Source: Octopus vulgaris
Lineage: Eukaryota
Length of the DNA: 64,000 bases
Reading direction: 5' to 3'
Assembly: GCA_951406725.2 (NCBI GenBank)
Contig: OX597816.1
Location: forward strand, 68,386,001 to 68,450,000
The position numbers and the translations under genes are program-made. Positions 1,385-47,104 of this stretch are shown one piece after another. The notes under the pieces were generated by a model. The model had not been told where the DNA came from. It did not search any database and saw nothing but the letters and a program-made list of their open reading frames with translations. How positions within the stretch are numbered: the first letter of the stretch is position 1; each line of letters starts with the position of its first letter.

Positions 1385-1554
1385 AAAATAATCTTCCCTT
1401 CTTGGGATCTTTCCTTCTCCTTGTTTCCGACGAAGAGCTCCGCTCGAAACGTTAAACCCTCCTTCCCTTCTTTCCTGAGCGTCAAATAATACTTTAATTG
1501 TTCCACGTCCTCGCGTTGCTGTGTTTTTTTCTGTGTTTTCTTGTTTGGATTAAC
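1385..1554 (+). mobile_element. Short PLE-pLTR-like element carrying a mini hammerhead, ending in (TA)n
   Basis: Homologous to the reverse complement of 14484-14660; 3' end ggattaac abuts (TA)n. Confidence 0.7.
1423..1457 (+). ncRNA. Minimal type-I hammerhead-like motif, variant core CCGACGA
   Basis: gttt-CCGACGA-a-gag-ctccg-ctc-GAAA-cg-TT-aaac; stem I gttt/aaac, stem II gag/ctc, palindromic ACGT stem III. Confidence 0.6.
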
Positions 1555-2080
1555 TATATATATATATATATATATATATATATATATATATATATATATA
1601 TATATATATATATACGAGCAAAACGGCCCCAGTCCAATGGACGATGCTGAGTTGTCAAACATTTAAACCAAATGTTCTCAAAACAACTTGTCCGACCATC
1701 CCATAGGTCTCCCCTTCGCGAAACACTGATTTAACCTAAATTTGAGACACCAGCAAAAGAAAAAAATGAAGATGACTTTTTTCTATTCCAAAGAAAAACG
1801 ATTTTATTCACACAAATATGCAACCGAAGAGTTTAAAGCACCAGTAATAATAAGGCTGTTGACTGGGAGAACACAAACATGGCTTAAACAGTTCTTTTCA
1901 TTAAAAAATCATTAAGCATGCCTTTATCTCAATAAATTTTTGGGTTTTGTTAAACGATGTTAAGGCAAAAAAAAAAAAAACTTCTTGAGAAACCAAATTG
2001 TTTTTCCTTCTTTCATGCCAAGTTTGAAGAAAATATCTCTTTTGCATCTTACTTTTTTGGTCTCTTAAATATACTGCATT

Positions 2081-2372
2081 TAGTGGCATTATTTCAAGCC
2101 AGCCGGCTTTTTTTGCGCAAACTGCACGGGCATTTTTCTTGCGTACGCGTAGTATCAATCGCAACAGCTGATGCACTTGCGCGTACAAATACACGTTCCC
2201 ACGGCTTTATCGATCGCATTCTTACCAGGAATCGATTTTTGTAACTTTTTCAAGACTTATAAACGCCGTGATACCGTCGGTATCTACATATCAAATTTGA
2301 GCGCAATCGGATGGAGTATGCCCGAGATGCTAGAAGACACACACTGAGACAGACAGTACGGATTTTATATAA
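2081..2372 (-). mobile_element. Non-autonomous Helitron/Helentron-like fragment
   Basis: Minus strand begins tatattatataaaatccgtactgtctgtct, then ccgattgcgctcaaatttg and gcccgtgca, motifs typical of short rolling-circle elements; no clean CTAG end. Confidence 0.45.
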
Positions 2373-2744
2373 TATATATATATATATATATATATATATA
2401 TATATATATATATATATATATATATATATATATGTGTGTGTGTGTGTGTGTGTGTGTGTGTATATATATATATGTATATAAATATATATATATATATATA
2501 TATATATATATATTAATATATGTATACATACATATACACGCGTGTGTGTATGTTTAATATGAATTGGTTTTATATTTTCGATACTATATAGCATCGATTG
2601 GTGTTATTATTAACATATATCGACAAATTTTACGATATAACCATAACGTAACTCGACGTCTACGAAGATAATTATTTTTGTGATAGAGTTGGTTTATGAA
2701 AATATTTTGTACATTACATATGTTTCTCTGCCGTTATAATGGTT

Positions 2745-2950
2745 TTTAGATTTTAACACAAGACCAGTAATTTCGCGGGAGAGTTTAAGTCGATTTCATC
2801 GACTCTTAGAGCTCATTTGGTAGTTAGTTTTCGTCCATGAAAAGATTGAATGCAAAGTCGGTTTCGGCAGCATTTGAACTCAGAAGGTAAAGACAGACGA
2901 AATGCCGATAAGCATTCTGCTTGGCGTGTTAACGATTCTGCCAGCTTGTC
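2745..2950 (-). mobile_element. SINE A, diverged
   Basis: gcaaagtcgg...tttgaactcagaa...aacgattctgccagct matches the reverse complement of the SINE A head and core. Confidence 0.75.
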
Positions 2951-3042
2951 GACCTCTCTCTGGTGACATAATAAGGCAAAATCAACTTACATATTTAGAA
3001 CATCTCTCTCCATTCTCCAGGCGAACAAAACAGTAAAATAAT

Positions 3043-3414
3043 TTTTTTCTACTCTAGTCACAAGGCCCGAATTTTTTGGGGAGGAGGCCAGCCAATTAGA
3101 TCGCTTCCAGTACGCAACTGGTACTTAATTTATCAACCCTCGAAAGGATGAAAGGCAAAGTCGACCTCGGCGGAATTTGAACTCAGAACGTAAAGACAGA
3201 CGAAATACCCGTTTCTTTACTACCCACAAGGAGCTAAACACAGAAAGGACAAACAAGGACAGACAAACGGATTAAGTCGATTATATCGACCCCAGTGCGT
3301 AACTGGTACTTGATTTATCGATCCCGAAAGGATGAAAGGCAAAGTCGACCTCGGCGGAATTTGAACTCAAAACGTAACGGCAGACGAAATACCGCTAAGC
3401 ATTTCGCCCGGCGT
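3043..3414 (-). mobile_element. SINE A dimer (tail 1 + tail 2) with 15-bp TSD
   Basis: Two cores; identical aaacagtaaaataat at 3028-3042 and 3418-3432. Confidence 0.9.
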
Positions 3415-43806: not shown

Positions 43807-44014
43807 CGAGCTGGCAGAAACGTTAGCACGCCGGGTGAGATGCTTGGCGGTATTTCGTCTGTCAATACGTTCTGAGTTCAAATTCCGCCGAGGTCGACTT
43901 TGCCTTTCATCATTTTGGGGTCGAAAAATTAAATACCAGTTACATACTGCGGACGATCTAATCAACTGGCTCCTTCCCCAAAAATTTTCGGGCGTTGTGC
44001 CTAAAGTAGAAAAG
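43807..44014 (+). mobile_element. SINE A, tail type 2
   Basis: Full head and core; tail cgggcgttgtgcctaaagtagaaaag; atataagtatatct occurs near both ends. Confidence 0.9.
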
Positions 44015-45452
44015 TATATAAGTATATCTATATCTATCTACATTCATTTATATCCTAGAAATACTTATCCCGGCCCTGTAAGGCCTCTACCATTGTTCTG
44101 CTCACATATGTAATTAAGAAATATTGATTTCTAATAATGACACAATGTCACAATGTCACAAACTTGTAGAGGGTGATTGGAATACTTATGATTAATACTA
44201 TTTTTGTATATCGCTGGTAGCTATTTTGGGTACCAGAATGGGAAAAAAAGCAAGCAAGAAAATGATTTGAATTTGAATGTAAACTAAAGTAACTGGATAT
44301 CGAAGAGCACATTGCTCTTTATTTCTTCATTTCTCATTGCTCATTCTGCCACTCTCTCAAGCCTATTTCTTACGTAATTTTAAAACTACTGAAGTTAACG
44401 AGAATGAACTTTTAAATTTCAAAATCCACTCACTAGAATTCGAATTTAGCATAATATACGCAGCAACATTTCATTTCGCTTTGCAGAAGCCAGAAAAATG
44501 AGCTGGAAATATTGATTTCTTAATTAGGTAATTAAAGCTGAAGCCTTAGAGAGGTGGAGTTAAGTGTCTCGATCAGTAAAACATAAAACGCCCACAGCTA
44601 TACATGAACTTGTAACCTCTGAAAGACAACGGGCATTACGTTTACAATCAATCATTATGTTTGAAGAATCTTCATTAATTTAAACACCCATTAACTTTTG
44701 CTGTCGATAACATAATGTATCTAAGGAGTGGTGGGATGGCAAGAGACAATAGATTGATAGAATTCTTAGAGCGGCCAACAATGAGCGTACAGCATTTCGT
44801 TACGCCCATTACATTCCGGGTTCATATCCCGCTGATCTCCACTATTCTTTCATCCAAGTGGAATCGACAGAATAAGTAATGGTTAAATACATCAGTAAAT
44901 TTGAGCGAATACATCCATGTTTTAAATCGGAAACCCTCTGTCTATATCATAATTTGATAAGTTAATACATTTCATGTTCCTTGGCTTCTGTGTTACTGCT
45001 AGGAGGAGAGACTTTCTAAGCACAAGATTTCATATAAATTTCAGCACATCTGACATTTAAGTATTTAAAAACCAGCAAACCCACCCTCCTTCGGGTAATG
45101 CATAGAGAGCATTCTACTCGATGGATGCAAAACCTGAGCTATGAAGGAGTTTCATGATCACTTTAGTTGTACATAGACCAGGTTTTCCATGAAGGCCCAA
45201 AGTATTTCATTGCAGGAGTAAAGGAACAATGACATCTTACCCTTTTTTTTTAATGTTTCTCAGTTGGGAGTAGCGATGTACTTTAGTGGCCACGAGAAAG
45301 CGAACGTAGGAACGTTTGAATTAGGTAAGATTTTTTCTGAGCAAATCATTGTGGCCAAACAGTAATATATCACAGTAGTGTCCATTTCTACACAAACATT
45401 TCCTGAGAAACTTCTCTTCCACAAACATTACTATTATGTTGTTGTTGTTGTT

Positions 45453-45652
45453 AAGGCGGTGAGCTGGCAGAATCATTAAGTACGCTGGACGAAATGCTTA
45501 GTGGTATATCACCCGTCTCTTACATTCTGTGTTCAAATTCCGCCGAGGACTACTTTACCTTTCATCTTTTCGGGGTCGATAAAATAAGTACCAGTGAAAC
45601 ACTGGGATCGATATAATCGATTAGCTCCATTCCTCAAAATTTCAGTAGAAAG
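45453..45652 (+). mobile_element. SINE A
   Basis: ggcggtgagctggcagaatc...ggggtcgataaaataagtaccag. Confidence 0.85.
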
Positions 45653-45679
45653 ACTTATTATTATTATCATTATTATCTT

Positions 45680-45916
45680 TGTTGTCCTCGGGCGCTCACA
45701 GCTCTTTACCAGTCGAGCAATGGGATCGGTGGATGATTCGCTTTAGAATTTTTATAGAGGATTAGTGGTGAGGAAGTGCGACGACTTTCTCGCGGAGATT
45801 CTGGGCGCCGACAAGAACGAACTTTAATAATTATGTCTGGTCGATTATCCTGGATCGTTCTATCGGTGAAAATCTCAGATAATATTGGCATTTTTACCTT
45901 CAACGACTGGACCAGA
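45680..45916 (-). mobile_element. R4/Dong-like REL-endonuclease fragment
   Basis: IFTDRTIQDNRPDIIIK (RPD motif); flanked by (TTA)-type repeats. Confidence 0.6.
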
Positions 45917-46899
45917 GTTATTATTGTTATTATCCTCCTCCTCCTCTTCCTCCTCCTCCTCCTCCTCCTCCTCCTCCTCCTCCTCCTCCTCATTATTATT
46001 ATTTTACTTGGTGCACCTACTCTGGTTGTCCACCGGTTTCACAAAAGTTTCTCTTTGGAGCACATAACCAAACTTTTAATAGTATTTTCGAAACAATGAG
46101 AAATTAAAAAAAAACACCCTTTAAAAACATTTAAATCATTCTGAAAGAATCTTCATGTTTTACGCTTCTTGTAATAGTATTGGTAGTTATATCGGCGACA
46201 AAAAAAATTGACAATAACAAGAATAGCAAAAGCAACGAAAACGACACCGACTAGAACAAATAATAAAACGAAACAGGCTATTAACCCAATCAATCGTTGA
46301 GGCTATTATTTCTTCTTACCGATTCTGCTAGATTTATTGCACAAGAGGGATTCAAATGATAAAGCAACAGACGCTGCATAAAACGCATTTCATTCTAACC
46401 AGAATTGTAAATCCGTCTAAATTCAAAGCTTCAAATGGAAATCATACTGATGACACCTTCTGTGTTTTTTTTTTATACAAAAATAAAAAAGCGGATATAT
46501 CTTTTACGGTTTTTTCGATGAGTACACTGACTAGAAAATCAGCGTAGGATGTAGTCTACTTGAAATTTATTATCGGATTAATTCAATTCCCCGATGAAAT
46601 ATAAAATATGTAAATTCGATTTAACGTATAATTACCCCGAGTGGTATTGATTTTAAAATTATCATCTACAATATTGGTTGCAGACACACAATTACTTACA
46701 ATAATTGACTGGGTGAAAACTTCTTTCCCTGGGTTGCTACTATAAAATGACGTGAAGTGGCATTGATATGACCAAAGAATTGCCTGGAATATATATATAT
46801 ATATATATATATATATATATATATATATATATATATATAACATATATATATATATGAATGTATGTATGTATATATGTATGTATGTATACATATACATAC

Positions 46900-47104
46900 A
46901 TCGCCTTGATAGATCGTTAGCCACAACACACATTTTTTATCTCTCCTTGTTTCTCTCCTTGCTTTTTCTGTGTTCCTTTCTGTAGAAGAGCGTAGGCTCG
47001 AAACGTAAAAGACTTTTTCTATTCCTGAGCGTTATACTAATACATATGTTTGCTTTGTACACCACCTGTCTTCGTCTTTTGTTTTTTTTTTCATAAACTC
47101 TCCC
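46900..47104 (+). mobile_element. Short PLE-pLTR-like element with mini hammerhead (HHR 46976-47011, core CUGUAGA)
   Basis: cttt-CTGTAGA-a-gagc-gtag-gctc-GAAA-cg-TA-aaag; ends ctctccc(TA)n like 34995. Confidence 0.8.

Follow-up and report, generated by a model that had tools for sequence, protein, structure and literature searches.

Two Penelope-like element families of Octopus vulgaris amplified with hammerhead motifs that carry a changed letter in the U-turn

In this work we analyzed a 64,000-nucleotide (nt) stretch of the Octopus vulgaris genome (assembly GCA_951406725.2, contig OX597816.1, positions 68,386,001 to 68,450,000 of the forward strand; hereafter the window), in which an earlier note had described four small hammerhead ribozyme motifs, some of them with unusual cores. 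The four motifs are located in the 5'-truncated 3' ends, known as pseudo-long terminal repeats (pLTRs), of two sister families of Penelope-like elements (PLEs) of the Neptune/Nematis type, here called A and B. Neither family adheres to the canonical core CUGANGA, given that position 6 is U in family B and position 4 is C in most of family A. Genome-wide counts and samples chosen blind to the core rule out decay as the source of these variants, and show that both families were amplified with non-canonical cores, contrary to the canonical consensus that would have refuted the earlier note. From the analyses taken together, we lean towards the view that these pLTR hammerheads, in which most copies have one U-turn letter changed (A6U for family B and U4C for family A), act as slow self-cleaving RNAs dependent on dimer formation or on a protein.

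All four motifs were recovered in the window where the earlier note had placed them, the sequence ttcctga.cg is found downstream of each, and every element ends in (TA)n (copies c1 to c4, Table 1). The motifs share a common parse, consisting of the 5' strand of stem I, a 7-nt core, an extra A, stem II, GAA, a 4-nt stem III, H17 and the 3' strand of stem I. Their topology is type I with stems I and II; the stems are of 4 base pairs (bp) in c1, c3 and c4, and stem III is minimal and self-complementary (palindromic) in these three copies and decayed in c2. A strict descriptor matched c1, c3 and c4 in the window, failed to match c2, and found nothing in any of 200 dinucleotide shuffles. An Rfam scan of the window returned no hammerhead among the 150 listed of 616 matches, and those listed were microsatellite-driven.

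The origin from PLE pseudo-LTRs, already proposed in the earlier note, is confirmed by coding sequence for a reverse transcriptase (RT) and a GIY-YIG-type endonuclease (EN) beside both variants. The copies have a common fixed 3' end, variable 5' ends and (TA)n insertion sites, and the long ones extend upstream into GIY-YIG-type endonuclease coding sequence. In the family B locus L171, an uninterrupted RT/EN open reading frame (ORF) of 968 codons is placed between two pLTRs, both with U6. Its protein matches Pfam RVT_1 (E 8e-8), and its best homologues are 44-62% identical, the named ones coming from molluscs, a coral and a shark. Pfam GIY-YIG gave no match on this protein, PF01541 being listed for many of its homologues; a CX4CxxC linker and CCHH-type cysteines were read by eye in the translation, and a CX2-5CxxC linker with a CCHH motif is visible in the translations of L171 and of L352 and L353. 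In this copy a few residues conserved among its relatives are changed, and it may be inactive. Two additional loci (L172 and L174) carry U6 hammerheads at both ends. The ORF of family A is distinct but related: in L352 a C4 pLTR is followed by a frameshifted RT and EN, and in L353 the EN is followed by a C4 hammerhead. The possibility of a non-LTR retrozyme, formed by non-coding tandem monomers without an ORF of their own, was discarded given that the copies are dispersed and continue upstream into the PLE ORF. The two pLTRs of L171 (3777-3808 and 8158-8190) belong to different subfamilies (N7 is U in one and C in the other, H17 is U and A), which is what the insertion of a copy behind an older pLTR would produce. 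Inverted pairs of family B stubs, head-to-head or tail-to-tail, are common (L033, L048, L071/L072, L154).

The state of the core was determined throughout the genome (2.8 Gb, 227 contigs) by exact-pattern matching, which favours young copies and yields too low a count for older canonical subfamilies. With the core left open, the pattern gave 34,540 matches. For family B, whose stem II has a 4-nt loop, U6 was present in 18,565 (5,919 + 12,646) of 19,458 matches and other letters in 893; a hand count of the first 100 of these 893 as listed gave C in 68, A in 25 and G in 7. The 13,755 matches of family A, whose stem II has a 3-nt loop, comprise 9,119 with C4 and 4,636 with U4, the latter figure taking in related families besides family A. 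The core-blind samples were picked by downstream motifs, as the first 90 of 23,630 matches for family B and the first 70 of 14,201 for family A, all from the beginning of one contig (C1). The whole motif was found in 70 of the 90 family B copies, 68 of them with U6; among these 70, N7 was U in 27, A in 22, C in 14 and G in 7, and H17 was A in 56 and U in 12. For family A, 57 of the 70 copies matched, two truncated ones were dropped, and C4 was present in 46 of the remaining 55. CUGUAGA, which the earlier note had reported from two copies, represents one of the four N7 states of a CUGU-N-GA family; likewise CCGACGA, found in a single copy of the window, is a variant at the level of the family. 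In contigs of four public runs with four organism labels, N7 and H17 vary, and no other letter reaches 3% at position 6.

Apart from positions 4 and 6, both families show canonical hammerhead features, i.e. GAAA, A15.1-U16.1, an H17 other than G, and C3-G8. The extra nucleotide after A9 is A in 70/70 copies of family B and 55/55 of family A, the G10.1-C11.1 pair is present, and G17 occurs in only 164 U6 matches genome-wide, the level of decay. A shifted reading of the core fails because N7 takes all four letters. Copies with the canonical core occur in both families. For those of family A, an origin of U4 by CpG decay is partly possible, since C4 lies within a CpG, but in the tail tree the canonical-core copies group apart from the C4 mass. 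The A6 copies of family B have the longest branches of their tree (0.11-0.15 versus a median of 0.046); rooting this tree with family A left its base open and did not settle the direction of change at position 6. To regard U6 as the derived state relies on the general metazoan consensus. An unrelated minimal hammerhead, with a canonical core and different stems, was observed on the minus strand of L152 near 716.

In family B the structural columns have changed much less than their surroundings. Variants shared by four or more copies were found in 44/98 flank columns, compared with 1/25 non-CpG structural columns (P=5e-5). When the tree was computed with the motif left out, parsimony gave 1.16 changes for structural columns versus 3.7 for flanks, the latter average falling to 3.3 changes per column without homopolymer columns. 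N7 accumulated 13 changes, H17 six, and position 6 one. The freedom of N7 and H17, with the other columns held, indicates that the rest of the family B motif is kept as a hammerhead would be.

A U-turn follows the U-N-purine rule, and A6U and U4C both fall on the CUGA U-turn of the core, with G8, G12 and the C3-G8 pair kept. The CUGA region has been described as a U-turn (PMC9901934), in which U4 contacts the A6-N7 phosphate (PMC3088659). The statement of the earlier note that U4 and A6 are nearly invariant has to be qualified, since natural U4C and A6C hammerheads have been published: U4C lowers the activity and leaves the viroid infectious, and the A6C hammerhead has a cleavage rate below 0.1/min (PMC3088659). 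Together with the mutational scan cited below, these published data predict a low activity. On what is known of PLE biology, the encoded endonuclease would nick (TA)n and RT would start about 100 nt downstream of the hammerhead, usually stopping early and leaving stubs. Copying of the ORF would then require the passage of RT through the 3' hammerhead, so that cleavage at this point would waste the template, and cleavage within the 5' pLTR would release the element from a longer transcript. Because the RT start lies downstream of the 3' hammerhead, templates would be lost if the ribozyme there were fast, and from this we infer a slow, conditional one. A ribozyme of low rate, activated either by dimer pairing through the palindromic stem III or by the protein of the element, would serve both needs, and the U-turn changes may lower the rate with the catalytic guanines retained. 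A hammerhead that cuts only with its protein has been described for the PLE known as PAc (PMC11167929). A bolder and doubtful proposal is that selection tunes the PLE ribozyme down: the sister families might have independently broken the U-turn (A6U and U4C) with the guanines kept and have become the dominant copies because a slower 3' hammerhead spares RT templates, and A6U might represent a new natural working core that relies on the protein of the element.

Several observations weigh against self-cleavage. The predicted cut site was copied through in 75/90 (family B) and 60/70 (family A) copies of the core-blind samples, and 5' ends were not enriched there, being found 3 nt away or less in 1/90 and 2/70 copies. 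Genome-wide, 65 (25+40) (TA)n junctions are located at the site, with no excess over two TA sites nearby, which have 59 and 65; signs of templates that had been cut are absent from the genomic copies. In vitro, the insertion of PAc is normal in catalytic mutants (PMC11167929), Naiad PLEs are reported to amplify without canonical hammerheads (PMC8557442), and in a full mutational scan of another hammerhead every single mutant of the CUGA region was low in activity (PMC9901934). The constraint in family A is not significant (1/22 structural versus 23/104 flank columns, P=0.07). In one of its subfamilies, chosen by likeness to a single copy, 28 of 30 loci were matched, all with a U-U mismatch in stem I and 27 with C4. 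The column tests, moreover, treat columns as independent of one another and are themselves affected by phylogeny, and the flanks align less well, with noise. The covariation of stem I is also weaker than the earlier note implied. The outer pair does covary, being C-G in 60/70 copies of family B and G-C in 46/55 or A-U in 1/55 of family A, but this is the sole covarying pair, it has two main states, and the stem covariation is thin. Finally, the folding energies do not stand out (z -0.50 to +0.63), and the predicted occupancy of stem I is 5-9%.

The earlier note had left two options, a tolerated natural variant or a structure that does not cleave, and we slightly favour the former. A motif that does not cut, whose fold and sequence are kept in the pLTR as a binding, RT-positioning or promoter element, is a possible though less probable explanation; it accommodates the read-through and the absence of a junction excess, the cleavage-independent insertion of PAc and the nearly dead U-turn mutants of the scan, and U6 is fixed to the same degree as the remaining letters of the core, which fits a partner that reads the sequence. 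However, a slow ribozyme would show read-through too, and the lack of an excess of 5' ends and junctions at the site is in line with PAc, for which the uncut RNA serves as template. In addition, the pattern of freedom (N7 with four states, H17 as A, U or C with no amplified G subfamily) follows catalytic rules, and neither family has lost G8, G12, C3-G8 or the palindromic stem III. It is improbable that a dead ribozyme was carried neutrally on master elements that chanced to expand, considering that over successive family B subfamilies the flanks and N7 changed often and the structural columns did not; this idea is helped by the weak constraint of family A, by the stem I mismatch of one of its subfamilies, and by the suggestion that hammerheads may merely parasitise PLEs (PMC8557442). 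We give very little weight to the opposite extreme, in which the variant cores would be fully active, offset by the extra A after A9, by a distal contact or by a protein. Perreault et al. suggest that variant cores can be offset by distal contacts (PMC3088659), but the extra nucleotide is general in PLE hammerheads that have canonical cores (PMC4209133), the mutational scan saw no pairwise rescue of the region save for the C3-G8 swap (PMC9901934), and no compensating change was found.

In both families, the 5' ends of the core-blind copies are concentrated at 75-120 nt upstream of the predicted cut. This cluster could mark the start of pLTR transcription, in which case many of the stubs of about 200 bp could be copies of transcript 5' ends and not random truncations. 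The GAGC of the downstream motif could base-pair with the stem II 3' strand and might in this way serve as an off-switch; the alternative pairing was predicted at 0.17 in family B (n=35) and 0.48 in family A (n=28). Dimer co-folds gave non-hammerhead duplexes. Elsewhere in the window, a hammerhead-like motif in scrambled order is found at 19440-19510 (minus strand), where GAAAC precedes CUGAAGA and the flanks of the two segments are complementary; SINE-like sequence at 53737-54101 holds two copies of a 184-bp tandem repeat; and 19820-20242 (plus strand) contains a frame of 140 amino acids, which we take to be a fragment resembling a mariner-type transposase. No host gene was evident among the 44 long ORFs of the window.

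Table 1. Coordinates of the PLE copies and associated features in the window
Feature	Position	Strand	Details
c1 element, 5'-truncated PLE 3' end, family A	1392..1554	+	about 163 bp
c1 minimal type I hammerhead	1423..1457	+	core 1427-1433 CCGACGA; C at position 4 (1428); outer stem I pair G-C; H17 U; predicted cut after 1453
c1 downstream motif	1472..1481	+	
(TA)n at c1 3' junction	1555..1614		
c2 element, 5'-truncated PLE 3' end, family A, canonical-core subfamily	14484..14761	-	about 278 bp; 5' end set by eye from the sequence; own reference in the 5'-end analysis
c2 hammerhead	14583..14617	-	core CUGAUGA (canonical); outer stem I pair A-U; decayed outside the core (stem III AUGU, H17 G, one stem II mismatch)
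c2 downstream motif	14563..14554	-	
(TA)n at c2 3' junction	14447..14483		
c3 element, 5'-truncated PLE 3' end, family B	34807..34995	+	about 189 bp
c3 hammerhead	34866..34901	+	core 34870-34876 CUGUAGA; U at position 6 (34873); outer stem I pair C-G; H17 A; predicted cut after 34897
c3 downstream motif ttcctga.cg	34912..34921	+	common to both families
(TA)n/(TG)n/(TA)n block separating c3 from inverted copy c5	34996..35152		
c5, fifth copy, family B 3' end, other subfamily	35153..35291	-	tail-to-tail with c3; truncated inside its hammerhead motif
c5 downstream motif	35265..35256	-	
c4 element, 5'-truncated PLE 3' end, family B	46902..47104	+	about 203 bp
c4 hammerhead	46976..47011	+	core 46980-46986 CUGUAGA; U at position 6 (46983); outer stem I pair C-G; H17 A; predicted cut after 47007
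c4 downstream motif	47022..47031	+	
(TA)n at c4 3' junction	47105..47164		

With two families and tens of thousands of copies that carry U-turn changes, and with canonical-core relatives of each family in the same genome as natural controls, the role of the PLE hammerhead becomes testable. Should the variants be able to cut, hammerheads tolerate a broader range of cores than present descriptors allow for, and about 28,000 motifs of this genome alone escape searches that demand CUGANGA; should they be unable to cut, the fold serves another function. PLE hammerheads, their cleavage as dimers and rare core variants are already known; what is new here is that variant cores are linked to coding elements and that constraint and read-through were tested. 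A family-wide A6U or U4C PLE hammerhead was not found in the literature searched, which took in neither one supplement file of PMC4209133 nor the study of Lunse et al. 2016; the latter reportedly concerns stem III variants but may list such cores. A whole-word search for hammerhead and A6U returned one twister paper only. The role of PLE hammerheads has been called unclear (PMC8557442), and cleavage by PAc is described as dispensable in vitro (PMC11167929).

The minimal hammerheads previously described in PLEs (PMC4209133) resemble the motifs reported here in their presence in both pLTRs, the short stem I, the extra nucleotide between A9 and G10.1, the G10.1-C11.1 pair, the palindromic minimal stem III, the U-rich 5' flank and the many solo truncated copies. 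In contrast, their consensus is CUGANGAH, the core variant described there affects C3/G8, and every row in the part of the alignment consulted has U4 and A6, whereas here whole families have U6 or C4. Natural U4C (in a viroid) and A6C (in phage Bcep176) were reported by Perreault et al. 2011 (PMC3088659), both weakly active; A6C is named in the available part of that text and A6U is not. Those variants are rare single RNAs, whereas in the octopus the variant is the majority state of families represented by about 9,000 (C4) and about 18,500 (U6) exact copies. The Neptune/Nematis EN+ PLEs (Craig et al. 2021, PMC8557442) share with the octopus families a single ORF with RT, the CX2-5CxxC linker and a CCHH GIY-YIG-type endonuclease, as well as the (TA)n targets, the pLTR-ORF-pLTR organization and the inverted truncated neighbours, but they are described with canonical hammerheads instead of variant cores. 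The PAc element (PMC11167929), a Poseidon PLE and thus of a different clade, has a hammerhead that overlaps the start of the ORF, whereas in L171 the ORF starts about 720 nt downstream; as in the octopus families, its pLTR hammerhead is located upstream of the internal RT start.

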